32,602 nt of DNA from a virus (lineage: Duplodnaviria; Heunggongvirae; Uroviricota; Caudoviricetes): IMG/VR virus record IMGVR_UViG_2698536533_000006; one strand, given 5' to 3'. The notes below the pieces were generated by a model. It was not told where the DNA came from. It saw only the letters and a program-made list of their open reading frames with translations, and did not search any database. Position 1 is the stretch's first letter. Each line of letters starts with the position of its first letter. Both the position numbers and the translations under genes were made by a program. This document shows, piece by piece, positions 1,299-28,262 of this stretch.

Positions 1299-1457
1299 TT
1301 TCTTTTCTTCCTATCAATTTGAAATTATTNNNNNNNNNNNNNNNNNNNNNNNNNNNNNNNNNNNNNNNNNNNNNNNNNNNNNNNNNNNNNNNNNNNNNNN
1401 NNNNNNNNNNNNNNNNNNNNNNNNNNNNNNNNNNNNNNNNNNNNNNNNNNNNNNNNN

Positions 1458-1595: not shown

Positions 1596-3683
1596 ATGTT
1601 TGCTTCAGTTAAAGAACTGGTTGGATTACCGGGGATGCCGGGAACGGAGCAAGGCGTTCGCTATTCAATCAGGAAGTATGCAACCAGCGAAACCAGCAGA
1701 CGCCGCAAGAAAGGCGCTAAAGGTTTTGAATACAGCATTGACTGTTTACCTGAAGTGACACAGCAGGCATTACGCGAACGTTATGCCCTGCAACTGATGA
1801 CGCAAAAAGCCGATGAATCACCGGCTCCGGTGGTGACAAAGGCCAGACGCTCGTCTGCCGTGGTTGATGCGGTGGAGGCATATCGCGGATCACCACAACT
1901 GATGGTCGAACGCCTCAATGCCCTGACTGAAAACCAGCGCCAGGTGGCAGACGCACGCATTGCGATCGTCAGTGAGGTGCTGAAATTCACGCAACAACCC
2001 GGTTTCAGCTGCGCTAAAGCTATCCGGTTCCTCGTTAACAGCCTGGCACGATCACAACTGGACGAGCGCATTGTGGCAATGGTTGAGACGGCGAACGCCA
2101 AAAAGGGAAACAGCCGCGCGTTGAGTGAAATCACGCTGAAACGCTGGATTGCGGCCTTTAACAAGGCACAGAACGCCGCTGAACGCCTGCTTTTACTGGC
2201 ACCGGGTAAACGCCAGGAAATAAAAGCCGAAGATATTAACTGGCTGCCCGAATTTCTGGCGCAGTATCGCCAGTCAAACGGCCGACCAATGACCGAGGCT
2301 TACGAGGATTTTGTTGCTGAATGGCAGCACCGGCACGCTGATGAGCCTTATATGCTCGATATCATGCCCTCTTATGACACCATTCGCCGCGCAATGAAGA
2401 AACTGCCGGAAGTGGTGAAACAAAAAGGCCGGGTAACTGGCAGTGAATACCGTCAGCTTGAGGGATTCACGCGCCGCGACTGGTCCAGAATGCCGGTGAA
2501 TTATGTCTGGATTGGTGACGGTCACGGCATGAAGCTGAAATGCGCGCACCCGGTTCACGGGCGGCCATTCGCACCGGAAGTGACCTTTGTTATCGACGGT
2601 GGCACGCGCTTTGTGGTGGGCTGGAGCCTTGACCTGGCTGAAAATGTTTTCGCCGTAGCCGGTGCCATACAGCACGGTATTCGCCATCATGGCAAACCGT
2701 TTCTGTATTACTCGGATAATGGCTCCGGGGAAACCGCCGACGTCCTGGATAAGGAGATTGTGGGGATACTGCCACGACTGGGGATTAATCACCCGACAGG
2801 GATTGCCGGTAATCCGCAGGGACGGGGCATTATCGAACGGCTTAACCGCACATTACCGATGCGCATAGCCCGTAAATACCGCACCTATTTCGGGAAAGGA
2901 GCAGATCGCGAGACGTTACGTAAAACCAACCGCGATTTACGCTCGGCATTCAGTGCCCTGCAACAGGGCAAACGGCTGAACGCCCGGCAGCAGTCAGCGA
3001 TGCGTGATTTACCGTCCTGGTCTGAACTGATTGATGCCATTCGTGACGGTGTTGAGTGGTACAACAACCGGCCGCACGATGAATTACCCATGAAGCCGAA
3101 CGGTAAACATTACAGCCCGGCGGAGTTCAGAAAAAAACGCCTGGCGGAAGAGGACACGGAAATTGAATGGCTGTCCGATGTTGAACTGCGGGATATGTTC
3201 CGGCCGATGGTGGAGCGCCCTGTAAGACGCTGTGAAATACGCTGGCTGAATAATATTTACTACGCGCCCGAGCTGCGTGACGAGCATGGCCGTAAGGTAC
3301 TTATCAGCTATGACATTCATGATGCCGAACGAATTACCGTGCGCCGCCCGGATGGCAGCGTGATTTGCGAGGCGGTATGGGACGGCAATAAACGCGAAGC
3401 CTTCCCTGTCAGCGCGGAATACTACAAACAGCAGCAGCGCCTTAAAGGCATGCGTAAACGCGCAGAGGAAAAAATCCGTGATGCCGAGGATGAGGTTGTC
3501 AACGTGCTGGAGCACAAGCCGCAGGAGCCCTGGCTGGAAAACATATACCGCCCTGTGGGTAATACGGTGACCGTTCAGCAACCGGTCGCTGACGATGAAC
3601 CTGATGAAGAATACGAGCGTAATTTCCAGCGGGGATTGCAACTGCTCGAAGCGAAATTAAAAGAAAGTGATCCGCTGGCCTGA
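1596..3683 (+). CDS. MuA-like DDE transposase
   Basis: 695 aa; N-terminus (SVKELVGLPGMPGTEQGVRYSIRKYA...KGAKGFEYSIDCLPEVTQQAL) resembles the MuA DNA-binding domain; size and position after ner match Mu A. Confidence 0.9.
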   Translation: MFASVKELVGLPGMPGTEQGVRYSIRKYATSETSRRRKKGAKGFEYSIDCLPEVTQQALRERYALQLMTQKADESPAPVVTKARRSSAVVDAVEAYRGSPQLMVERLNALTENQRQVADARIAIVSEVLKFTQQPGFSCAKAIRFLVNSLARSQLDERIVAMVETANAKKGNSRALSEITLKRWIAAFNKAQNAAERLLLLAPGKRQEIKAEDINWLPEFLAQYRQSNGRPMTEAYEDFVAEWQHRHADEPYMLDIMPSYDTIRRAMKKLPEVVKQKGRVTGSEYRQLEGFTRRDWSRMPVNYVWIGDGHGMKLKCAHPVHGRPFAPEVTFVIDGGTRFVVGWSLDLAENVFAVAGAIQHGIRHHGKPFLYYSDNGSGETADVLDKEIVGILPRLGINHPTGIAGNPQGRGIIERLNRTLPMRIARKYRTYFGKGADRETLRKTNRDLRSAFSALQQGKRLNARQQSAMRDLPSWSELIDAIRDGVEWYNNRPHDELPMKPNGKHYSPAEFRKKRLAEEDTEIEWLSDVELRDMFRPMVERPVRRCEIRWLNNIYYAPELRDEHGRKVLISYDIHDAERITVRRPDGSVICEAVWDGNKREAFPVSAEYYKQQQRLKGMRKRAEEKIRDAEDEVVNVLEHKPQEPWLENIYRPVGNTVTVQQPVADDEPDEEYERNFQRGLQLLEAKLKESDPLA

Positions 3684-3988
3684 AATAAAAAAATAACCCG
3701 AGGGGTGACTCAGGTTATTTGAGGTTTCAGTCTCNNNNNNNNNNNNNNNNNNNNNNNNNNNNNNNNNNNNNNNNNNNNNNNNNNNNNNNNNNNNNNNNNN
3801 NNNNNNNNNNNNNNNNNNNNNNNNNNNNNNNNNNNNNNNNNNNNNNNNNNNNNNNNNNNNNNNNNNNNNNNNNNNNNNNNNNNNNNNNNNNNNNNNNNNN
3901 NNNNNNNNNNNNNNNNNNNNNNNNNNNNNNNNNNNNNNNNNNNNNNNNNNNNNNNNNNNNNNNNNNNNNNNNNNNNNNNNNNNNNNNN

Positions 3989-4705
3989 CAGTTTGTGGAA
4001 ACTCAGACAGTCCAGGAGCTGCGCGCACTGTTTCAGGCGGTTCGCCTGATGGGCTGTATTAACGTTATTGTGGGCGTACCGGGTGTGGGTAAAACGGCCA
4101 CTGCCCGTAATTACTGCCAGGAGCAACCAAACACCTGGATGATCACCCTGTCACCCGCGCACTCCAGCGTCACGGAGTGTCTGCTGGAGCTGGCCGATGC
4201 GCTGGGGATTGATTACACCCGCGCGAACAAAGGGGCATTATCCCGCGCCATCCGCCGTCGCCTGATGGGAACGCGTGGACTGGTGATTGTGGATGAGGCG
4301 GATCATCTTGGTATTGACGGTCTGGAGCAACTCCGGGCAATTCAGGACGCCACGGGGATCGGGATGGTGCTTATTGGTAACCCGCGCGGATTGTTTAAAG
4401 GTGGACGCCGCGCCTTTGATGATTTATCGCGCCTGTTCAGCCGTCTTGCCCGTACAAAACAACTTCGCAAGGCCAAAAAGGCGGATGTGCTGGCCATTGC
4501 CATGGCGTGGGGGATCAGTGGTGAGGCCGAGCTGGCCGTCATGCAGGCTATCGCTGAAAAGCCGGGAGCGTTACGCGTTCTGACACATACGCTTAACCAG
4601 GCGTGGCTCACCGCCAGCGGTGAAGGCGCGGCGCTGACAGAAAAACATATTAATGCGGCCTTTAAAGAGGTTTATACCAACCCTGAATTACTCTCACAGG
4701 TGTGA
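3989..4705 (+). CDS. MuB-like transposition ATPase, start hidden in N run 3735-3988
   Basis: Walker A motif GVPGVGKT and Walker B-like VIVDEADHL; directly downstream of the transposase. True start is somewhere between about 3720 and 3988. Confidence 0.85.
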   Translation, partial: QFVETQTVQELRALFQAVRLMGCINVIVGVPGVGKTATARNYCQEQPNTWMITLSPAHSSVTECLLELADALGIDYTRANKGALSRAIRRRLMGTRGLVIVDEADHLGIDGLEQLRAIQDATGIGMVLIGNPRGLFKGGRRAFDDLSRLFSRLARTKQLRKAKKADVLAIAMAWGISGEAELAVMQAIAEKPGALRVLTHTLNQAWLTASGEGAALTEKHINAAFKEVYTNPELLSQV

Positions 4706-6914: not shown

Positions 6915-7238
6915 NNNNNNNNNNNNNNNNNNNNNNNNNNNNNNNNNNNNNNNNNNNNNNNNNNNNNNNNNNNNNNNNNNNNNNNNNNNNNNNNNNNNNN
7001 NNNNNNNNNNNNNNNNNNNNNNNNNNNNNNNNNNNNNNNNNNNNNNNNNNNNNNNNNNNNNNNNNNNNNNNNNNNNNNNNNNNNNNNNNNNNNNNNNNNN
7101 NNNNNNNNNNNNNNNNNNNNNNNNNNNNNNNNNNNNNNNNNNNNNNNNNNNNNNNNNNNNNNNNNNNNNNNNNNNNNNNNNNNNNNNNNNNNNNNNNNNN
7201 NNNNNNNNNCTGCCGGGATATCTGCGGAGGTGGCGTAA

Positions 7239-9352: not shown

Positions 9353-9865
9353 ATGAATCGCGCTTCCCTGATTACCTTAATACATGTCGCAAAACGCGAT
9401 CTACAGCTTGACCATGATACCTATACATCCGCGCTGCTGGCAGCCACCGGCAAATCCAGTTGCCGTGATATGTCACCCGGTGAGTTATCCCGCGTGCTGG
9501 ATGTTTTCAAAAAACGCGGTTTTAAAGTGCGTCAGAAGCCGGTTAACCGGGCCTTAAAACCGGGTACGGTGACCGCCAAAATTCGCGCCATCTGGAAAGT
9601 GATGCACCGGCAGGGATTTATCTCTGATGGCGGGGAAACGGCCCTTAACCGCTGGGTGAAATCGCAGACGGCCGCGCAGAACGACGGCGAAGGTGTGGCT
9701 AACTGGCAGTGGCTGGAGCAACAACCCGCGCTGGCCTCTGATGTGCTGGAGCGTCTCAAACGCTGGCACCGCCGCAAAATGCTGGCAGCCCTGGATATGT
9801 CGGAACGTGCAGTGATGAGTTATGAGCGTGTTTGCAGGCTGTATGAAAAATCATTCCCCCGTTAA
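9353..9865 (+). CDS. gemA: GemA-like protein (Mu gp16 family)
   Basis: 170 aa; position immediately upstream of the Mor-like gene as in Mu; N-terminus (LITLIHVAKRDLQLDHDTYTSALLAATGKSS) fits my recollection of the gp16 family. Confidence 0.6.
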   Translation: MNRASLITLIHVAKRDLQLDHDTYTSALLAATGKSSCRDMSPGELSRVLDVFKKRGFKVRQKPVNRALKPGTVTAKIRAIWKVMHRQGFISDGGETALNRWVKSQTAAQNDGEGVANWQWLEQQPALASDVLERLKRWHRRKMLAALDMSERAVMSYERVCRLYEKSFPR

Positions 9866-14915: not shown

Positions 14916-16504
14916 TGGGACGCATCATTGATACTGACGGAAAACCTTTCTCCTTTGACCCGGAGATGCAGAGTGCCGCGCTGGATATTCCGCAGATTGC
15001 CAGCCGTTATATTGAACATCCGGCTTCGGGTATCACCCCGAACCGGGCGGCGCAGTGCCTTCGCGGGGCTGAACGTGGCGATCTGATTGCCCAGTCCGAT
15101 CTGGCCGCTGATATTGAAGAAAAGGACACCCACCTTTTTGCGGAGCTGGGCAAGCGACGTCTTGCCATTCAGGGGGTGCCATGGAGTATTGAGCCGCCAC
15201 CGAACGCCAGCGCGAATGAGAAAAAGGACGCGGAAATGCTCGACGAATATCTGCATTCCGCAGACTGGTTTGATGCCATGCTGTTTGACGCCACGGATGC
15301 CATCCTGAAGGGCTATTCCTGCATGGAAATTGAGCACGGGATGCTCGGTAAAATGCACATCATCCGCGCCATCCGCTGGCGTGACAGCGGGCATTTCTGC
15401 CTTAACCCGGATGATTTGAGCGAACTGCGGCTGCGTGACGGCAGCCATGCCGGGGTGGCGTTTCAGCCCTTTGGCTGGATAGTGCATCAGTCGCGTTCAC
15501 GCACCGGCTACGGTGGTGCGACGGGGCTTGTCAGAACGCTTATCTGGCCGTTCATTTTCAAAAACTATTCCGTGCGCGATCTGGCGGAATTTCTGGAGGT
15601 GTACGGCCTGCCAATGAAGGTCGGGAAATACCCGTCCGGGGCAACACCGGAGCAGAAAAGTGCCCTGATGCGGGCGGTGATGGATATCGGGCGACGTACA
15701 GGCGGGATCATCCCGGCCGGGATGTCGCTGGAGTTTCAGGCGGCAGCGAACGGTCAGGCCGATCCGTTTGAAACCATGATTTCGTGGGGTGAGCGTTCCA
15801 TCTCCAAAGCAATACTCGGCGGCACGCTGACCACAGAAGCCGGAGACAAAGGCGCGCGCTCGCTGGGTGAGGTGCATAACGAGGTGCGCCGGGAAATCAG
15901 GGATTCTGATTTACGCCAGCTGGCTGCAACCCTGAACCGCGATCTGGTGTATCCGCTGTATGCCCTGAACACCGCCCACGCCATTGATATCCGTCGCCTG
16001 CCGCGTATCTGTTTCCAGACCAAAGAACCGGGGGATATCACCAAAATAGCCAGTGCGGTGATGCAACTCAGTGCGGGGATGGATATTCCTGATCCCTGGG
16101 TACGGGATCAGACCGGTATTCCACAGCCCACGCCCGGTGAAGCCATATTCCGTGTCCGTCAGAGCAGTAATGAACCGGCCATGCCTGACAGGGAAACGCT
16201 ACCGGAAAAACAGGAAAAGACAGAACAGACGGCGCTTTCAGCCCGACTGCCGGAAGCGAAAAACACGCCGCGTGATGAACTGGACGACATGGGGGACGCG
16301 GTGCCTGCCCGCCGCTTACAGGAGGCCATCGATCCGGTGCTGGAGCCGGTCATTGATGTCATCAGAACGCGGGGGCTGGCGGAGGCACTGGCAGACCTGC
16401 CTGCCCTTTACCGTGAAATGGATGATTCCCGCCTGATGACGCTGCTCAGTGATGCCATGTTTGCTGCGGAAATGAAGGGGATGCTGGATGGCTCAGGGGA
16501 TTGA
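14915..16504 (+). CDS. Portal protein (Mu gp29-like)
   Basis: 529 aa, GTG start overlapping the terminase stop (TAGTG); position after the terminase; acidic C-terminal region. Confidence 0.8.
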   Translation: MGRIIDTDGKPFSFDPEMQSAALDIPQIASRYIEHPASGITPNRAAQCLRGAERGDLIAQSDLAADIEEKDTHLFAELGKRRLAIQGVPWSIEPPPNASANEKKDAEMLDEYLHSADWFDAMLFDATDAILKGYSCMEIEHGMLGKMHIIRAIRWRDSGHFCLNPDDLSELRLRDGSHAGVAFQPFGWIVHQSRSRTGYGGATGLVRTLIWPFIFKNYSVRDLAEFLEVYGLPMKVGKYPSGATPEQKSALMRAVMDIGRRTGGIIPAGMSLEFQAAANGQADPFETMISWGERSISKAILGGTLTTEAGDKGARSLGEVHNEVRREIRDSDLRQLAATLNRDLVYPLYALNTAHAIDIRRLPRICFQTKEPGDITKIASAVMQLSAGMDIPDPWVRDQTGIPQPTPGEAIFRVRQSSNEPAMPDRETLPEKQEKTEQTALSARLPEAKNTPRDELDDMGDAVPARRLQEAIDPVLEPVIDVIRTRGLAEALADLPALYREMDDSRLMTLLSDAMFAAEMKGMLDGSGD

Positions 16505-17832
16505 TTTAGGTTATGCCGCCACGCTTCCCTCAAAAGAGACGGTGGCATACTTCCGCGCCAAAGGGGCGCATATCAGCTGGAACTGGTTCGAAACAGACGC
16601 GGATGTTCATGCCCGCTCATTCACGGCAGCAAAAACGGCACGGCTGGATGTGGTAACCACATTACAGGCCGAAGTGCAGCGGGCCATTGATGAGGGGATT
16701 TCACAGAAAGAATTTATCCGCACACTGACGCCACGCCTGCAAAAGCTGGGATGGTGGGGAAAGCAGATTGTGGTGGACAGCGACGGTAACGCGGAAGAAG
16801 TGCAGCAGGGCAGTCCCCGTCGTCTGGCGCTGATTTACAACGTGAACACCCGTGTGGCTTACAATGCCGGGCGTTACACGCAGATGATGAACAACACGGA
16901 CACGCATCCGTTCTGGCAGTATGTGGCGGTCATGGACAGCCGTACCCGCCNNNNNNNNNNNNNNNNNNNNNNNNNNNNNNNNNNNNNNNNNNNNNNNNNN
17001 NNNNNNNNNNNNNNNNNNNNNNNNNNNNNNNNNNNNNNNNNNNNNNNNNNNNNNNNNNNNNNNNNNNNNNNNNNNNNNNNNNNNNNNNNNNNNNNNNNNN
17101 NNNNNNNNNNNNNNNNNNNNNNNNNNNNNNNNNNNNNNNNNNNNNNNNNNNNNNNNNNNNNNNNNNNNNNNNNNNNNNNNNNNNNNNNNNNNNNNNNNNN
17201 NNNNNGGCGCCAGAACCATGACACCGGATGTGGGCTGGTCATATAACCCCGGCTCGGCAGCGTTCGGCACAGACCAGGCGCTGATCCGCAAACTGATCGA
17301 GGTGAAAAGCCCGGCGTTACGGGAAATGGTGGTTCAGGAGATGAACAACAGCCCGGAGCGGCAGCTGGCGTTCCGCATCTGGGCAAAAAACATCATGCAG
17401 ACCCGGCGAGGTGGTAACGATATCCGCACGCTGGGCTTTATGACTGAAAGCATTGCGCAGGCAGTGGAAAGCCGGACGGGAACGCCACCGGCCCGCCTGC
17501 TGGCGATGAGCGGTAAAAATGTGCTCCATGCGGACAGTGTGAAACATCAGAATGACGGCATCGCTCTGACGCCGGAGGACTTCGGGCGCTTACCGGCAAT
17601 GCTGGCAAGGCCAAAAGCGGTACTGTGGGACAAACGGCACAACAATCTGATGTATATCGTGGAAAATCAGGATGGCAGTGTGCAGATTGCCGTTAATGCA
17701 CCGTACAGTCTGAAACGTCAGCCCGACAAACTGGATGTGATTGTGAATGCTTACCGGGTTATCAATATGGATAAGCTGAAATCGGATATCCGGGGCGGAA
17801 TGCTTGAGGTGCTGGAAGGACAAATTGATTAA
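16488..17832 (+). CDS. Head morphogenesis protein (Mu F / gp30-like), interrupted by N run 16951-17205
   Basis: Open frames on both sides of the gap with combined size near Mu gp30. Frame continuity across the gap cannot be verified. Confidence 0.6.
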
Positions 17833-17916
17833 CGGTCAGTGGCGGGGGTCGAACCCGCATACATGATCCACCCGGAGGCAGGCACCGACTTTACCAGTTA
17901 AGCGTACACTGACCGC
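17833..17916 (-). other. tRNA-like structured element (9-bp closing stem plus T-arm-like hairpin); not a canonical tRNA
   Basis: CGGTCAGTG (17833-17841) pairs with CACTGACCG (17908-17916); inner hairpin GCGGG-GGTCGAA-CCCGC reads GCGGGTTCGACCCCCGC on the minus strand. Confidence 0.3.
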
Positions 17917-20728: not shown

Positions 20729-21058
20729 ATGAATGAACATCACACTGTGGCAGCAACAGATGATTCAGGCCTTCAGGTCAGTGGTGACAGTCCTGTCACG
20801 GTACTGGCAGAAGTGCGTTGCAGTCGTACGCATTTTCGTCGTGCGGGGTTCCTGTTCATGCGGGGACGCCAGCAGGTTGACGTCACCCCGGAGCAGCTTG
20901 CCCGACTGGAAGCGGAGCCATGCCTCACTGTACGAATACTACAGACGCCTGGTGATGATGCGGGAGCCGTGGCGGGTGTGGTTCATGCAGAGACCGGTGC
21001 AGATTTAGCCGAAGCCGAAACCGTACAGGATGCTCCCCGGAAAAAGACCGGCAATAAC
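20729..21058 (+). CDS. Hypothetical head-region protein, N-terminal part (runs into N run 21059-21331)
   Basis: ORF beginning MNEHHTVAATDDSGLQVSGD...; the C-terminus is not visible. Confidence 0.4.
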
Positions 21059-21331
21059 NNNNNNNNNNNNNNNNNNNNNNNNNNNNNNNNNNNNNNNNNN
21101 NNNNNNNNNNNNNNNNNNNNNNNNNNNNNNNNNNNNNNNNNNNNNNNNNNNNNNNNNNNNNNNNNNNNNNNNNNNNNNNNNNNNNNNNNNNNNNNNNNNN
21201 NNNNNNNNNNNNNNNNNNNNNNNNNNNNNNNNNNNNNNNNNNNNNNNNNNNNNNNNNNNNNNNNNNNNNNNNNNNNNNNNNNNNNNNNNNNNNNNNNNNN
21301 NNNNNNNNNNNNNNNNNNNNNNNNNNNNNNN

Positions 21332-21523
21332 CTGTGCGATCAGCGGGCATCCGATCAGGCGCGTGACCGTTACCGTGAGGCGCTGGCCTGGCTGAAAGAT
21401 GTCATGAACGGTAACGTGCCGGTCGGCGTGGATACAGACGGTGCGGCCCCTGAATCCGGGGATTTACCGCAGGTGCAGTCTGATGCGGCGGTGTTCGGGC
21501 GCAACCAGAAGGGCTTTATATGA
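21332..21523 (+). CDS. C-terminal part of a head/neck protein (position of Mu gp36), start in N run
   Basis: Open frame from the gap to TGA at 21521-21523, overlapping the next ATG (ATGA). Confidence 0.4.
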   Translation: MCDQRASDQARDRYREALAWLKDVMNGNVPVGVDTDGAAPESGDLPQVQSDAAVFGRNQKGFI

Positions 21524-22086: not shown

Positions 22087-22365
22087 ATGACAACCATTTT
22101 TATTAAACCTGCGCCGGGATGCCTGATCCGCGATCCCGACACGATGACTCCGCTCTCTCAGGACGGGGAAGAGAAACCCTTCACTCCGTTCTGGTGCCGC
22201 CGTCTTAATGATGGCGACGTCATTGTGGTGGATAAAACGGCGGAGCCTGCCCCGGCTGCCACAACTGCTAATACCGGCGCGGCGGCAAAACCAGCGGGAG
22301 CGGTAGCAGAAAAAACTGCGGCGGTGGCTGAAAAAACCGCAGCATCAGATAAGGGGACGTCCTGA
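22087..22365 (+). CDS. Small protein preceding the sheath gene (Mu gp38 position)
   Basis: 92 aa with an Ala/Pro/Thr-rich low-complexity C-terminus; stop overlaps the sheath ATG. Confidence 0.5.
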   Translation: MTTIFIKPAPGCLIRDPDTMTPLSQDGEEKPFTPFWCRRLNDGDVIVVDKTAEPAPAATTANTGAAAKPAGAVAEKTAAVAEKTAASDKGTS

Positions 22366-23867
22366 TGATTAACTTTGATTATATCGGCGATAACAATCGC
22401 ATTCCGCTGGTACAGATTGAAATCAATAATTCAATGGCCGTGACCGGCACTCCACCACAGCGTCAGGCGGTACTGTTGTTTGGTCAGGCTGCAATGAAAG
22501 ACACTACCATTCAGGGGCGCGGTCAGCTTGATGTACCAGTACGTATTACCCGAGCTTCACAAGCAAGAGAACTCTGGGGGCGAGGTTCCATGATTGCACT
22601 GATGGTAGAGGAATTTATCGCCATTAACCCTGACACAGAGTTATATGCCATTGCACAGGGGGCTGGAACAGGTCAGTCCAGGGCATGCGTGATGAATATC
22701 ATTGGAACAGCATTGGCAGACGGGGTGTTAAGTGTTTACATCGGCGGTCGCCGTTACCTCCTGCCCGTCAGTAAGGGGAAAAAAGGTAAAGAGCTTGTGG
22801 AAGAGCTGGCTAAGGTCATTAACGCTGACACTGATGCGCCATTCACTGCTATCGCAGCTGAAGTCAGTGGTGATAATGCTGAAGGACTTAAAGGCAGCAT
22901 GGGGGTTAACGCCCGCTTTATCGGTGAATGCTCAGCTCATGATTTACGGGTGAACTATTATGACGGTGAAACTACACCGGCCGGTCTTACGCTGGAGCTC
23001 GTCGCGCCAACACAGAAGGCAACAAACCCCGATATCACCCGTAGCGTCTCAGGGATGGGGAATCGTCAGTACAACTACATCGTCATGCCCTATAAGGATG
23101 CGGCAAATCTCAAAATTCTGGCGGATGAACTGCTGAAACGCTGGGGACCGGTAAAAATGTCGGACGGTATGGTCTGGATGGCGCATACCGGCACCTTCGG
23201 TACGGCAACCAGTTTTGGTGAATCCCGTAATGACTTCCTGTTTACCTGCACTTCTATTCCTAAAGCACCAGAGCCGGATTATGTCTGGGCTGCCTCCATT
23301 TGTGCGGTCTGTGCGCCCTCCCTGTCAACGGATCCGGCCCGACCATTACAGACACTGGCGCTGCCTGCCCGTATGGCACCTGAAGCACCGGATCGTCTGA
23401 CGCGGGAAGAGCGAAACAGCCTGCTTTATACCGGCATGTCCACGGTGACCGTCGCGGCCGCGGATGTGGTGCAGATTGAACGTCAGGTGACGATGTACCG
23501 TCAGAATGCATACGGCGAAATCGATCCCAGCTATCTGGATGTGGAAACCATCTACACCCTGTCATATCTGCGTTATTCCCTGCGCACCTTTATCACGCAG
23601 CGTTTTCCGCGCCATAAACTGGCTGATGACGGGACGCCCGTTCGTGCCGGTCAGAATATCGTGACACCGGAGATCATGAAACTTCAGTTAATTTCGCTGG
23701 GGGAAGAATGGGTGGATCTGGGACTGGTCGAAAATCTGGACACCTTTAAAAAGAATCTGCTCGTGGAGCGCAACACAAAAGACCGTAACCGTCTGGATGT
23801 GATGTGTACACCGGATCTGGTTAACCAGTTCCGCTTCATGGCCGCGCAGATCCGTTTCATTTTGTGA
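22365..23867 (+). CDS. Tail sheath protein (Mu L-like)
   Basis: 500 aa, followed directly by the tail tube gene; this gene order is diagnostic of a contractile tail. Confidence 0.85.
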   Translation: MINFDYIGDNNRIPLVQIEINNSMAVTGTPPQRQAVLLFGQAAMKDTTIQGRGQLDVPVRITRASQARELWGRGSMIALMVEEFIAINPDTELYAIAQGAGTGQSRACVMNIIGTALADGVLSVYIGGRRYLLPVSKGKKGKELVEELAKVINADTDAPFTAIAAEVSGDNAEGLKGSMGVNARFIGECSAHDLRVNYYDGETTPAGLTLELVAPTQKATNPDITRSVSGMGNRQYNYIVMPYKDAANLKILADELLKRWGPVKMSDGMVWMAHTGTFGTATSFGESRNDFLFTCTSIPKAPEPDYVWAASICAVCAPSLSTDPARPLQTLALPARMAPEAPDRLTREERNSLLYTGMSTVTVAAADVVQIERQVTMYRQNAYGEIDPSYLDVETIYTLSYLRYSLRTFITQRFPRHKLADDGTPVRAGQNIVTPEIMKLQLISLGEEWVDLGLVENLDTFKKNLLVERNTKDRNRLDVMCTPDLVNQFRFMAAQIRFIL

Positions 23868-23875
23868 GGTAAGGC

Positions 23876-24241
23876 ATGAGCGGAAAACAGTATCAGGGCA
23901 CGGCCACCATCCGTGTGAACGGGCAGGAGTACGACACCCTTGAGGGGGCCACGTTCTCCCCGTCCGGCTTTGAGCGTGAAGTGGTGAAAGGCGCGAAAGT
24001 TTACGGCTATCGCGAGAAACCCCGTGAGGCGACGCTGGACTGTAAATTCCCGGCGGGCGGAGAAGGTTCACCGGCTGCCGATGAAATCAACACCTGGACT
24101 GCGGTCACGATTGAGTTCGTGGCCGATACCGGTGAAGTCCACATGATGACGAAGGCCTGGAGCAGTGAACCGGCCTCGCTTGACGGTGGTGGTGATATCT
24201 CCGCGAAGTTCGCCAGCGCCACCAGTACCCGTGTCCAGTAA
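23876..24241 (+). CDS. Tail tube protein (Mu M-like)
   Basis: 121 aa immediately after the sheath gene; RBS GGTAAGG. Confidence 0.8.
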   Translation: MSGKQYQGTATIRVNGQEYDTLEGATFSPSGFEREVVKGAKVYGYREKPREATLDCKFPAGGEGSPAADEINTWTAVTIEFVADTGEVHMMTKAWSSEPASLDGGGDISAKFASATSTRVQ

Positions 24242-24255
24242 TCAGGAAAAATGTA

Positions 24256-24732
24256 ATGAGCACACGTAAGAAAAAAACGGCGGTTTCTGACGAGGCCGTG
24301 ATGGAGGCTATCCGGGATGCACTTGAAGACGGCGATCCCCGCACCGCCGGGCTGGCTGAACAACTGGCGAACGGCTATGTGGATCTGCTCGACGGTCTGC
24401 CGTTCGGGGAATCCCGTGAATACCGCGTCACCTTCCGCGAACTGACGGCAAAAGACAGCATTGATGCGGAGAGCGAGGCCGAGCGTCTTATGGAAACCCG
24501 AAACGGTCCGGTTCTTGTGGCCTCACCGGCACTGCGCGGCATTGCGCTGCTGCGCCGTCAGATTGCCGCTGTCGGCCAGATTGAGGGGCCATTGTCTCCG
24601 CGTCAGATAGGACAGCTCAGCGAGCGCGATCTCTCCCGACTGATGGCGGCAGTAAGCCTGCTTGATTCCGCGATGGCCGGAAAGCTGGTCGCTGAACGGG
24701 GGCGACCAGATGCAGTGCCGGGATCAGATTGA
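24256..24732 (+). CDS. Tail assembly chaperone
   Basis: 158 aa between the tail tube and tape measure genes, the conserved position of tail assembly chaperones. Confidence 0.6.
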   Translation: MSTRKKKTAVSDEAVMEAIRDALEDGDPRTAGLAEQLANGYVDLLDGLPFGESREYRVTFRELTAKDSIDAESEAERLMETRNGPVLVASPALRGIALLRRQIAAVGQIEGPLSPRQIGQLSERDLSRLMAAVSLLDSAMAGKLVAERGRPDAVPGSD

Positions 24733-24856
24733 AGAAGCCGCAATTGTGCTGGGGATGGTGACAAAAAGCGGCCCGGAGTGGGCGCTTAACCTCCCCTTAT
24801 CGCAGCTTTACCGGCACTGCCGACAGACCGAAAAAATTCTCAGAACGAAGCAGTAA
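24662..24856 (+). CDS. Possible frameshift extension of the tail assembly chaperone (+1 frame overlap)
   Basis: 64-codon ORF in the +1 frame overlapping the last 71 nt of the chaperone gene and ending 4 nt before the tape measure start; G5 run at 24688-24692 lies in the overlap. Confidence 0.35.
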   Translation: MIPRWPESWSLNGGDQMQCRDQIEEAAIVLGMVTKSGPEWALNLPLSQLYRHCRQTEKILRTKQ

Positions 24857-24859
24857 CCC

Positions 24860-26917
24860 ATGGCAAAAAACCTGAAAGCCTCCCTGATTGTCGATTTACT
24901 CGGCAATATTTCTGCCAAATCCCGCCAGTGGTCACAGGAGCTGGGGGCATTCTCCCGTTCCGGCAGGACGGGGCTGGGTGGTCTTGGAAATGCAGCACGT
25001 CGTGCCGGTCAGGAGACAGAACTTGTCGGCTCCCGTATGCAGCGAACGCTTGCCGGTGTTCGTGGCAGTATCCGCACGGTGACGTCAGATTTTGACCGCC
25101 TTCAGGGCAGCATTACCGGCACCATCGGGCGGATAAGCAACCTTTACGGGATGCTGGCGGGAGGGGCTGCGGTCTACGGGTTTAATAAAGCCTTTATCCG
25201 CCCGGCCGCAGAGATGGAGAACTATATTCTGCGTCTCAACGCCATTAATCATGGCGATACGGCAAAAACGGAAGCAGTGAAAGCCTGGGCGGTACAGAAC
25301 GCCAAAGACACCACCTGGGGGCTGGCGGGGGTTATGCAGGAATACGCCTCCAGTCGCGGGTTCGGTATGAGTGACAGGGAAGCCCGTCGCTTTATTACCA
25401 TGCTTCAGGATCAGGGCGGCTATCACGGCTGGTCACTGTCAGATGCACAGGGTGCGTCCCTGCAACTCAAACAGATGTTTGCCCGCCAGAGTATCCAGGC
25501 AGCGGACGCCAATATTCTGACCGGATACGGGATTAACGTTTACCAGTTGCTGGCCGATAAGCTGGGTGTAAACCAGAAGATCATCCGTGAGAAAGGCGAG
25601 AAAGGAAAACTGGGACCGGACAGCATTCGCCTGTTATTTCAGGTGATGGCCGAACAGGCAAAAGGTGCCCAGAAAAACGCCATGAATTCCTGGACGGGAA
25701 TGACGTCCATGATGGGCGATGTCTGGGACGGATTTGCCCGCGAGGTGATGGCAAAGGGACCGTTTGACAGCCTGAAAAAGAGCCTGAAAGGCTTTCTGGA
25801 TTATGCTGATGCGGCACAGAAAAGCGGCTTACAGGATAAGCTGGCCACACAGACGGCCTCAGCCCTGAATCAGGGATTTGAGTATGCCAGAGACGCTGCG
25901 ACCGGCTTTTACCGGGTCATTCAGAAAGTCAGGGAAACGCTTCAGGCACTGCGCGACGCCGGTTATGGCGATGCGCTGGATCGCATTGGTCAGGGTGCGC
26001 AGACCGCCGCAAAGTACCTGATGTATATGTATCTCGCCTCCCGTGCGCTGAAGGTGCTCAGGTTTGCGGGGACGGGGGCATTACGTCTCGGCGCAACCCC
26101 CTTACGCTATGGCATGGCGATGACCTCCGTGCTGACGTCGCCCTTCCGCAAACCGCAGACCACTGTACCGGGAACGCAGCCCGGACGCGCTGGCCGGTTC
26201 CTGAATTTCCTTACCGGGGTAAATCCGGCTGCCGTTCAGCCCGTGCTGGTCACCAATTGGCCTGCGGGTGGCCTGGCCTCAGGTGGCGGGGATGTGGTGG
26301 TCAGCGGTGACGGCAAAACCGTGCGCGGCCGTAAAAAACGCGGCCCCGGACGTGGACGGGGTGTCACGACCGTCGTGACTGCCGGTGAGCAACTGGCGGA
26401 GAGTGCCGGTAAACAGGGCTTCTTCGGTCGTATGATGAGCCGTGCCGGTGGTCTGCTAACGGCGGCCGGAAACCGCATGGGGCTGGGGCGTTTTGCCGGG
26501 CTGTTCCGTGGTGCCGGTCGGCTGGGTGGTGGTGCCCTGTGGGCCGGTGCCATGGCGGCTCCTGTACTGCTGGACAGCAGCGCCAGTGCAGCCGATAAAG
26601 CCGGTGCCGTGGGTTCCCTTGCCGGAAGTATCGCCGGTGGCGCGCTGGGGGCGGCTGCCGGTCCGGTCGGGGTTGCCATTGGTTCCACGGTGGGCAGCTA
26701 TCTCGGTGATTATCTGGGGGGCTGGCTGACGCAGGCCTGGCAGAAACTGCGTGGCGGCAGTGACGAAAACGGCGGACAGGCCACCGCGAAAACCGCCGCA
26801 CGGGTGGAGCTTGTTGCCCCTGAAGGCTGGCGGGCGCGCAGTATTGATGTGGATGATACCGCACAGCATGGCCTGGATGTGAACGTCTGGAACGGAGGGA
26901 ACTATGGCCTCTACTGA
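24860..26917 (+). CDS. Tail tape measure protein
   Basis: 685 aa; position after the chaperone; helical N-terminal part and Gly/Ala-rich C-terminal region typical of tape measure proteins. Confidence 0.85.
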   Translation: MAKNLKASLIVDLLGNISAKSRQWSQELGAFSRSGRTGLGGLGNAARRAGQETELVGSRMQRTLAGVRGSIRTVTSDFDRLQGSITGTIGRISNLYGMLAGGAAVYGFNKAFIRPAAEMENYILRLNAINHGDTAKTEAVKAWAVQNAKDTTWGLAGVMQEYASSRGFGMSDREARRFITMLQDQGGYHGWSLSDAQGASLQLKQMFARQSIQAADANILTGYGINVYQLLADKLGVNQKIIREKGEKGKLGPDSIRLLFQVMAEQAKGAQKNAMNSWTGMTSMMGDVWDGFAREVMAKGPFDSLKKSLKGFLDYADAAQKSGLQDKLATQTASALNQGFEYARDAATGFYRVIQKVRETLQALRDAGYGDALDRIGQGAQTAAKYLMYMYLASRALKVLRFAGTGALRLGATPLRYGMAMTSVLTSPFRKPQTTVPGTQPGRAGRFLNFLTGVNPAAVQPVLVTNWPAGGLASGGGDVVVSGDGKTVRGRKKRGPGRGRGVTTVVTAGEQLAESAGKQGFFGRMMSRAGGLLTAAGNRMGLGRFAGLFRGAGRLGGGALWAGAMAAPVLLDSSASAADKAGAVGSLAGSIAGGALGAAAGPVGVAIGSTVGSYLGDYLGGWLTQAWQKLRGGSDENGGQATAKTAARVELVAPEGWRARSIDVDDTAQHGLDVNVWNGGNYGLY

Positions 26918-28262
26918 CACGCCGGGGCGTGGCTCCTTTCGTGGCGTACCGTTCCTGGTTTATCAGGAGCAGCGGGAACGGGGCGGACGTAACATTGTGC
27001 GCCGTGAATACCCACTGCGTGAAAGCGGCGGTGCGGATGATCTGGGGCCAAAACTCCCGGAGTTCACATTCACGGTTCTGGTGACCGGAGACGATCTTCA
27101 GACACAGCGAAGCCGCCTGCGTGATGCGCTGCGTGCACCCGGTGCCGGTGAACTGATGCACCCGGATTACGGCACGTTAAACGTGCTGATAAACAGCTTT
27201 GAAAGCCGTTATAACGCCAGCGAGCAGGGAACGGTTGAGTTCACGATCAACGTGATCCCCGCCAGTGACGATACCGCCCCTGCGGTGGCAGAAGATACGG
27301 CAGCTGCGCTGGAGCAGAAAAGCGGCTCAGCAATGAATCAGCTGTTTAACACGCTTTCAGACGGCTGGACGGTGATTTCAGACGGTCTGCATGATGTACA
27401 GGCCATGACCGACACCATCAGCGATAAGATTGATGCACTGGAGAATGCCGTTTCGGGGATGGGGATTGTGCAGGATATCAGTGCCTTTACGGCCAGTTTT
27501 ACTGCCCTGAAAGGCAATGCCGCCGCCCTGATTAATGCGCCCCGTCGCATGGCTGAATCGCTGGCCGGAATGTTTGCCGTGCTGACCGGGCTGCCCGGCG
27601 ATCCTTCCCTGTCTCTGACCGGAAAAGCCGGAACGCCGTCCGGCAGCCTGACCACAAACCGTGACAGCATGGCAGAGCAGGCCATGCCGCAGCTGTACCG
27701 CACACTTTCCTCCCTGCGTTACACCCTCAGCGAACAGGATGATCCACAGCGCCTGATTGGCCTGACGCCTGCGGCACAGAAAAATATCCGTCTGCTGCGG
27801 AGCGTGATGCAGAGTGCAACCCTGGTGTCGCAGGCACAGACGCTCGGAAAACTGCTGGATCAGGTCATCCGGCAGAATACGACGCACGTTCAGGATACTG
27901 ACCGTTCGGGCGGACTGGCCTGGCTGGAAAGTTCTGCTGATGTGCAGCGTATCAACCGGGATTTGAGCGATGCCATGGAACAACAGGTGCTGGATCTGTC
28001 CGCACAGGGCTATACCGGGACTGCCCTTGCATTACGTGATGCAGGGCTTGCGCTGACAGAAGATTTAACCACACGGAGCGTGCATCTTCCCGGTGCTTTT
28101 CAGGTCATGGTTCGCACCACCGAACCGGCACTGGTCACGCTGTACCGTGCCACCGGCAACAGCAGTCGCTGGCAGTATTTTGTCCGCAGAAACAATATCC
28201 CCGATCCGGTTTTTGTTCCGGGTGGCCGCAGCGTGGAGGTGATCAGTGAGCAGCAGGATTGA
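26904..28262 (+). CDS. DNA circulation protein (Mu N-like)
   Basis: 452 aa directly after the tape measure gene, as Mu N is. Confidence 0.75.
   Translation: MASTDTPGRGSFRGVPFLVYQEQRERGGRNIVRREYPLRESGGADDLGPKLPEFTFTVLVTGDDLQTQRSRLRDALRAPGAGELMHPDYGTLNVLINSFESRYNASEQGTVEFTINVIPASDDTAPAVAEDTAAALEQKSGSAMNQLFNTLSDGWTVISDGLHDVQAMTDTISDKIDALENAVSGMGIVQDISAFTASFTALKGNAAALINAPRRMAESLAGMFAVLTGLPGDPSLSLTGKAGTPSGSLTTNRDSMAEQAMPQLYRTLSSLRYTLSEQDDPQRLIGLTPAAQKNIRLLRSVMQSATLVSQAQTLGKLLDQVIRQNTTHVQDTDRSGGLAWLESSADVQRINRDLSDAMEQQVLDLSAQGYTGTALALRDAGLALTEDLTTRSVHLPGAFQVMVRTTEPALVTLYRATGNSSRWQYFVRRNNIPDPVFVPGGRSVEVISEQQD

Follow-up and report, generated by a model that had tools for sequence, protein, structure and literature searches.

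The tail assembly chaperone gene of a Mu-like prophage very probably undergoes a programmed -2 ribosomal frameshift of the type known from phage Mu. The gene is located in a stretch of 32,602 nucleotides (IMG/VR virus record IMGVR_UViG_2698536533_000006), here called the window, which is a Mu-like transposable myophage present as a prophage. Phage Mu is already known to have the phenomenon, the protein family, and the exact site, and this prophage is a further member of the group; the -2 frameshift appears to be conserved here, at a site identical to that of Mu, in a phage whose chaperone has diverged from the Mu protein by about 50%.

The window carries Pfam domains of the Mu transposase A in 1596-3683 and of MuB in 3719-4705, upstream of tail genes arranged in the order tube, chaperone, tape measure. 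A tail sheath gene (22365-23867, Pfam) is followed by the tail tube gene, which is Mu gpM-like (23876-24241, plus strand; PF10618 Tail_tube, E 3.4e-30; phrog_185 tail tube, E 6e-36). As the upstream neighbor of the chaperone gene, the tail tube gene fixes the conserved tube/chaperone/tape measure order. On the other side lie the tape measure gene (24860-26917, plus strand; PF20155 TMP_3, E 2e-17; phrog_973 tape measure, E 3e-198) and a Pfam match to the DNA-circularisation protein N-terminal domain, DNA_circ_N (26904-28262). Identical or near-identical copies of the prophage are carried by E. coli chromosomes. Five masked runs of N are present in the window (1330-1457, 3735-3988, 6915-7209, 16951-17205, and 21059-21331), and they give rise to artefactual ORFs. 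The overlap of ORFs 16488-17246 and 16921-17832, considered as a second frameshift in a split Mu gpF-like head morphogenesis gene, was rejected as an artefact of the N run at 16951-17205, and ORF 20729-21523 (264 aa) covers two separate genes of the E. coli JE86-ST05 prophage. The RefSeq record of the latter (locus L090) also contains a feature named 'tRNA-OTHER' at 2659-2738 on the minus strand, corresponding to about 17834-17913 of the window; it sits on the opposite strand between the head morphogenesis and virion morphogenesis genes, and ARAGORN reported no tRNA anywhere in the window.

The 0-frame chaperone ORF, a homologue of Mu gp41, extends from 24256 to 24732 on the plus strand and encodes a protein of 158 aa (16,975 Da) that ends in AERGRPDAVPGSD at the stop codon TGA, 24730-24732. 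It matched Pfam family PF23746 Gp41_Mu (E 3.3e-32, 111 bits against a cut-off of 27) and the tail assembly chaperone family phrog_508 (E 5e-45). Identity to Mu gp41 is 49.6% by tblastn, in a match that covers residues 33-155, and values of about 50% were obtained with the gp41 proteins of Mu, D108, SfMu, and Yersinia Mu-like phages; tblastn also detected remoter relatives in phages of Pasteurella, Klebsiella, Alteromonadaceae, Shewanella, and Vibrio. The +1 frame (24662 mod 3 = 2, against 24256 mod 3 = 1) contains a second ORF, 24662-24856, which overlaps the chaperone ORF from 24662 to 24732 and closes with the TAA at 24854-24856, leaving 3 nt between its final stop base and the tape measure ATG at 24860. 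The original prediction, made from the letters of the DNA, had described a chaperone ORF between the tail tube and tape measure genes, overlapped for 71 nt by a +1-frame ORF that ends 4 nt before the tape measure start; the Pfam assignments, the gene order, and the coordinates bear out this arrangement. It had also noted a GGGGG run within the overlap, which is correct, but had placed it 10 nt too early, at 24688-24692 (in fact GTCGC) instead of 24698-24702.

This G5 run forms part of the slip site CGG GGG CGA, identified by direct reading at 24697-24705 on the plus strand. In the 0 frame the codons are GAA, CGG (24697), GGG (24700), and CGA (24703), 10 codons before the 0-frame stop. The 12-nt sequence GAACGGGGGCGA matches phage Mu exactly (locus L001, 1855-1866), where it has the same codon register and lies close to the 3' end of gp41. 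The -2 frameshift of the Mu tail chaperone was reportedly described by Xu, Hendrix, and Duda in Mol Cell in 2004. In the GenBank record of Mu (AF083977) the short form is Mu_41, and Mu_56 is a joined CDS carrying the text 'verified -2 translational frameshift in PMID 15469818; tail assembly chaperone frameshift product'. The verification of the -2 shift in Mu is taken here from this note and from secondary citations, and Mu is cited as a -2 case in reviews and papers. In a 2025 preprint, about 14% shifting into the +1/-2 frame was obtained with the Mu 10-mer alone in PURExpress, a purified system; the preprint calls this value the first quantification of the Mu site, and the result suggests that the short site is sufficient. 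The motif alone is not rare, since GGGGCGA was found three times in the window against an expectation of 6.65. A full-text literature search for GGGGGCGA returned a single match, an unrelated table of ribosome-binding sites.

By the proposed mechanism, most ribosomes would translate from 24256 to the TGA at 24730-24732 and release the 158-aa chaperone. A minority would pause while the P site holds tRNA-Gly paired to GGG (24700-24702) and the A site holds CGA (24703-24705), which is poorly decoded. The tRNA-Gly would then move two bases back to GGG (24698-24700), and decoding would restart at GGC (24701-24703) and run to the TAA at 24854-24856, yielding a fusion of 200 aa (...AERG-GDQMQCR...) with a C-terminal domain of 51 residues. 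The computed product consists of residues 1-149 plus these 51, with a mass of 21,947 Da and GGDQMQCR as its junction peptide. CGA is a rarely used codon, representing 5.5% of the Arg codons in the phage's genes, and its decoding by I:A wobble is inefficient. We infer both the slip mechanism and its efficiency in this phage, and the re-pairing step would follow the result recorded for Mu.

The conservation of the site and of the downstream frame was assessed in a comparison set of 90 sequences, made up of 80 IMG/VR loci, nine annotated phage loci, and the window. In 89 of the 90, the motif NNG GGG CGA is found in register shortly before the chaperone gene ends, and in every one of these 89 sequences the +1 frame is open for the 47-52 codons from the motif to the tape measure start. 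Among representatives of lineages with less than 80% nucleotide identity (23, or 24 including the window), GGGGCGA is 100% conserved, whereas flanking positions range from 26 to 91%. Downstream of the motif, the 24 representatives contain no +1-frame stop in 1128 codons, against 48 in 1200 codons upstream. In Mu-like lineages, +1-frame stops appear as near as 3-4 codons upstream of the motif, and none after it. Given the local density of stops, a single open +1 frame of 47 codons would arise with a probability of about 0.15 and is thus not in itself beyond chance; the significance of the open frame comes from its conservation across diverged lineages and not from the window alone. The candidate programmed frameshift into the +1/-2 frame put forward in the original prediction is in this way supported by orthology to Mu, an invariant site, and a conserved open frame: the comparison with Mu-like phages, which it had proposed as a check, identifies the locus as the orthologue of Mu gp41/gp41.5, and the overlapping frame is open in every lineage examined. 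Its remark that the shift is +1 (or -2) rather than the common -1 was accurate as to direction, although the feature is a documented hallmark of Mu-type phages and not a novelty.

The frame downstream of the slip site encodes a homologue of Mu gp41.5. This -2 (= +1) frame extension, 24701-24856 on the plus strand, comprises 51 codons and a TAA stop and reads GDQMQCRDQIEEAAIVLGMVTKSGPEWALNLPLSQLYRHCRQTEKILRTKQ. It is 53% identical to the Mu extension (BLASTP, E 2e-22), matches phrog_12783 (E 1e-38), and has with Mu the common block SGPEWAL.LPLS..(Y/F)RHC. Substitutions were counted in the non-overlapped part, 24733-24853, against relatives at 75-91% identity. Differences at third codon positions of the +1 frame amounted to 8/10, 8/11, and 11/14, and the changed codons in this frame gave synonymous to non-synonymous ratios of 8:2, 7:2, and 11:3; in the other two frames the changed codons were almost all non-synonymous. 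The substitution pattern indicates that the extension is under purifying selection in the +1 frame only. Because of this selection, and because it is homologous to the Mu extension, the extension is most probably translated.

These results also bear on another explanation, namely that the overlap arose by chance, with an unexpressed +1 ORF and an untranslated intergenic spacer at 24733-24859. The probability of about 0.15 for one open frame of 47 codons is compatible with such a coincidence, and RefSeq leaves the stretch without annotation in an identical prophage of E. coli (NZ_AP022815.1, locus L090, where the 127 nt at 9534-9660 correspond to 24733-24859 of the window). However, a frame open across 24 lineages, an invariant motif, frame-specific substitutions of the coding type, and homology to the Mu extension make a chance overlap practically negligible as an explanation.

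The extension might also be an independent small gene, initiated at ATG 24710 or TTG 24662 with the G run as Shine-Dalgarno sequence and producing a free peptide of about 48 aa. This is the sole alternative with local support, as ATG 24710 is in frame and lies 7 nt downstream of GGGGG in this window; in addition, the D108 record (NC_013594) annotates gene 41.5 as a separate CDS for a 'hypothetical protein', and in PHROGs the extension forms a separate family (phrog_12783). The start codon is not conserved, however: Mu has its first canonical start at codon 28 of 51, L065 at codon 28, L070 at codon 32, and the nearest relatives of the window (L003, L019, and L030) at codon 15. The CDS named 41.5 in D108 begins where the identical Mu sequence has CTG. 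Conserved residues start right at the G run, with RGG(D/E), and the distribution of +1-frame stops in Mu-like lineages, which come within 3-4 codons upstream of the motif and then disappear, also argues against a separate gene. Independent initiation is thus highly improbable as the general explanation; in this phage in particular, some initiation from ATG 24710 could occur alongside the frameshift.

Within the slip site, several nucleotides are conserved irrespective of the amino acids that they encode. The G at -1 is invariant though its codon specifies R, K, Q, or S according to lineage. The G at -2 is conserved to 87%; in 20 of 23 lineages Arg is encoded by CGG or AGG, and the common codons CGT and CGC do not occur. 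The C of CGA never varies, even though a change to AGA would be silent in either frame. These three observations indicate that selection acts on the nucleotides as such. [quoted passage not shown] This comparative support for selection at the nucleotide level is a modest point.

The same positions help to separate the -2 shift from a +1 shift at the same site, in which tRNA-Gly would slip from GGG to GGC and decoding would resume at GAC (24704). The product would be a fusion of 199 aa (...AERG-DQMQCR...), with a computed mass of 21,890 Da, one Gly less, and the junction peptide GDQMQCR. A +1 slip leads to the same target frame and therefore explains the same conserved open frame; the invariant CGA would suit a hungry-codon mechanism of the prfB type, relatives with a run of four G lose perfect -2 re-pairing yet keep GGG_C unchanged, and the reporters of the 2025 preprint could not separate -2 from +1. 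On the other hand, the conserved G at -1 and G at -2 are needed for -2 re-pairing and are irrelevant to a +1 slip, which favors the -2 direction, in agreement with the Mu record, which gives the shift at the same 12-nt sequence as -2 and as verified by experiment. Furthermore, re-pairing from GGG to GGC would be mismatched at the wobble position. For this phage, -2 and +1 are not separable by sequence alone, but the sequence appears to favor -2, and we consider a +1 shift improbable.

The relatives with a G4 run are 8 of 68 distinct relatives, in which the site reads AAG, CAG, or TCG GGG CGA, and they form three lineages (L030-L034, L040/L041, and L073/L074) in which the downstream frame is still fully conserved. 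In a G4 run the -2 re-pairing is mismatched at the first codon position, so the direction of the shift might vary across the family; these lineages may use a +1 shift, or the mismatch may be tolerated.

A lambda-type -1 shift was rejected as the conserved event, since the -1 frame is closed in relatives, with 58 stops in 1128 codons among the 24 representatives. In the window itself, slipping back by one base on the G run would allow perfect GGG to GGG re-pairing and would add 19 residues before a stop (24699-24760). This -1 frame ends 29 nt beyond the stop of the 0 frame and is not conserved, so any -1 product would be a by-product. No explanation for the preference of -2 over -1 was found in the sequence.

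The G run could also be a site of transcriptional slippage, with RNA polymerase dropping one G or adding two in G5 and thereby generating a subset of mRNAs with fused frames. Homopolymer runs can cause RNA polymerase to slip, and one relative provides an example of an indel in the run, be it in the DNA itself or introduced by sequencing. This relative, L036 (IMGVR_UViG_2758568005_000002, about 1540-1620), is the sole exception to the conserved motif; it has one G fewer (CGGGGCGAG), a loss that places gp41 and gp41.5 in one reading frame, and about 60 nt further on, at a GGGG run, the frame changes again. The cause is apparently either a sequencing error in a homopolymer or decay of the prophage. 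In bacteria, the known slippage sites consist of long A or T runs of about 7-9 bases or more, and compared with these a G5 run, or the G4 run of 8/68 relatives, is short. Slippage of the polymerase would also leave the invariant CGA after the run unexplained, and the Mu site is recorded as a translational frameshift; we therefore regard transcriptional slippage as barely plausible.

No convincing stimulatory RNA structure was found in the clade of the window. Single-sequence folds were no better than shuffled sequences (z = -0.38 for the window and z = 0.00 for Mu), and RNAalifold gave only four trivial pairs for the clade. When the minimum-energy fold of the window itself was placed on the clade, 72% of the positions paired with weak covariation, a value that is biased because the fold derives from one member of the alignment. 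Rfam gave no family matches, a scan for promoters and terminators found none between the genes, and a search of the PDB found no sequence homologues of the fusion. These results are consistent with a short site being sufficient.

A hairpin was observed in a group related to Pasteurella phage Pmp9 (L004, L078, L081-L086, and L088). It has 11 bp, begins 6 nt after CGA, and spans +12 to +49 from the GGG codon; 91% of its positions are paired, against 23-51% in slid controls, and five pairs change on both sides (CAA/TTG to CAG/CTG). The observation is based on eight sequences, and the changes are synonymous and track host codon usage. The hairpin is absent from the clade of the window, where imposing it gave 55% pairing, no better than slid controls. 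It may be a lineage-specific frameshift stimulator.

A broader reading would be that the orthologous site switches direction during evolution while keeping the same target frame, with a -2 shift in G5 sites, a +1 or mismatched -2 shift in G4 sites, and a hairpin stimulator only in the Pmp9-related group; for this window in particular, the 9-nt site would act alone and would also give a third product by a -1 slip. We regard this reading as rather unlikely.

The closest known system for the programmed -2 shift proposed here is the gp41/gp41.5 pair of Mu (Mu_41/Mu_56). Both belong to the Gp41_Mu family, lie between the tube and tape measure genes, contain GAACGGGGGCGA in the same register, and have the same target frame; the extensions are homologous, equal in length at 51 codons, and stop just before the tape measure start. 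They differ in that the chaperone domains are only about 50% identical, and the window protein exceeds Mu gp41 in length by 14 aa (158 against 144 aa), its first 32 residues being outside the tblastn match. Past the site, the 0 frame continues for 10 codons in the window and for eight in Mu, and the in-frame ATG at codon 3 of the extension is without counterpart in Mu. The frameshift of Mu is recorded as experimentally verified, whereas that of this phage is predicted from its sequence.

The gpG/gpGT system of lambda has a comparable position directly upstream of the tape measure gene and a comparable pair of products, one short and abundant and the other extended and rare, in a fixed ratio; both products presumably bind the tape measure protein in each case, with the extension recruiting the tube protein. 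The -1 frameshift of lambda, at G GGA AAG, was reportedly described by Levin, Hendrix, and Casjens in 1993 and by Xu et al. in 2013 and 2014. Lambda differs in having a -1 shift, an X XXY YYZ heptamer with tandem slippage, and a non-contractile tail. The combination that characterizes the lambda type, a heptamer with a -1 frame open up to the tape measure gene, does not occur at this locus, and a Pfam scan of the window gave no matches to a lambda-type family.

In P2, gpE/gpE+E' (PF10109 Phage_TAC_7) belongs to a contractile tail, as does the chaperone described here, and has the same position and role, whereas its shift is -1, according to a note on Mu_41 in the Mu record. The window chaperone matched PF10109 weakly (E 5.5e-5, 23.6 bits, below the cut-off of 25), which suggests that the P2 gpE family is at most distantly related. 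If lambda gpG/gpGT and P2 gpE/E+E' are taken as models, both products of this phage would coat the tape measure protein, the rarer long form would recruit the tail tube protein through its extra domain, and the efficiency of the frameshift would set a fixed ratio of chaperones for tail assembly; neither form would remain in the virion. We infer this division of labor between the short and long products from those systems.

Two other frameshifts that are not of the -1 type are comparable in part and are unrelated to the window site by sequence or function. In E. coli prfB, a single P-site tRNA likewise slips with the aid of a slowly decoded A-site codon, in contrast to the window in the +1 direction, at a stop codon, and with an upstream Shine-Dalgarno stimulator. 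The arterivirus nsp2TF is the other well-known -2 frameshift, but it is eukaryotic and needs a trans-acting protein.

The main value of these findings is for annotation, as biologically nothing new is added: the invariant NNG GGG CGA signature would allow the long isoform to be annotated in all Mu-like phages and prophages. At present, the records of other Mu-like phages mostly omit the extension, and a joined CDS is given only in the updated Mu record.
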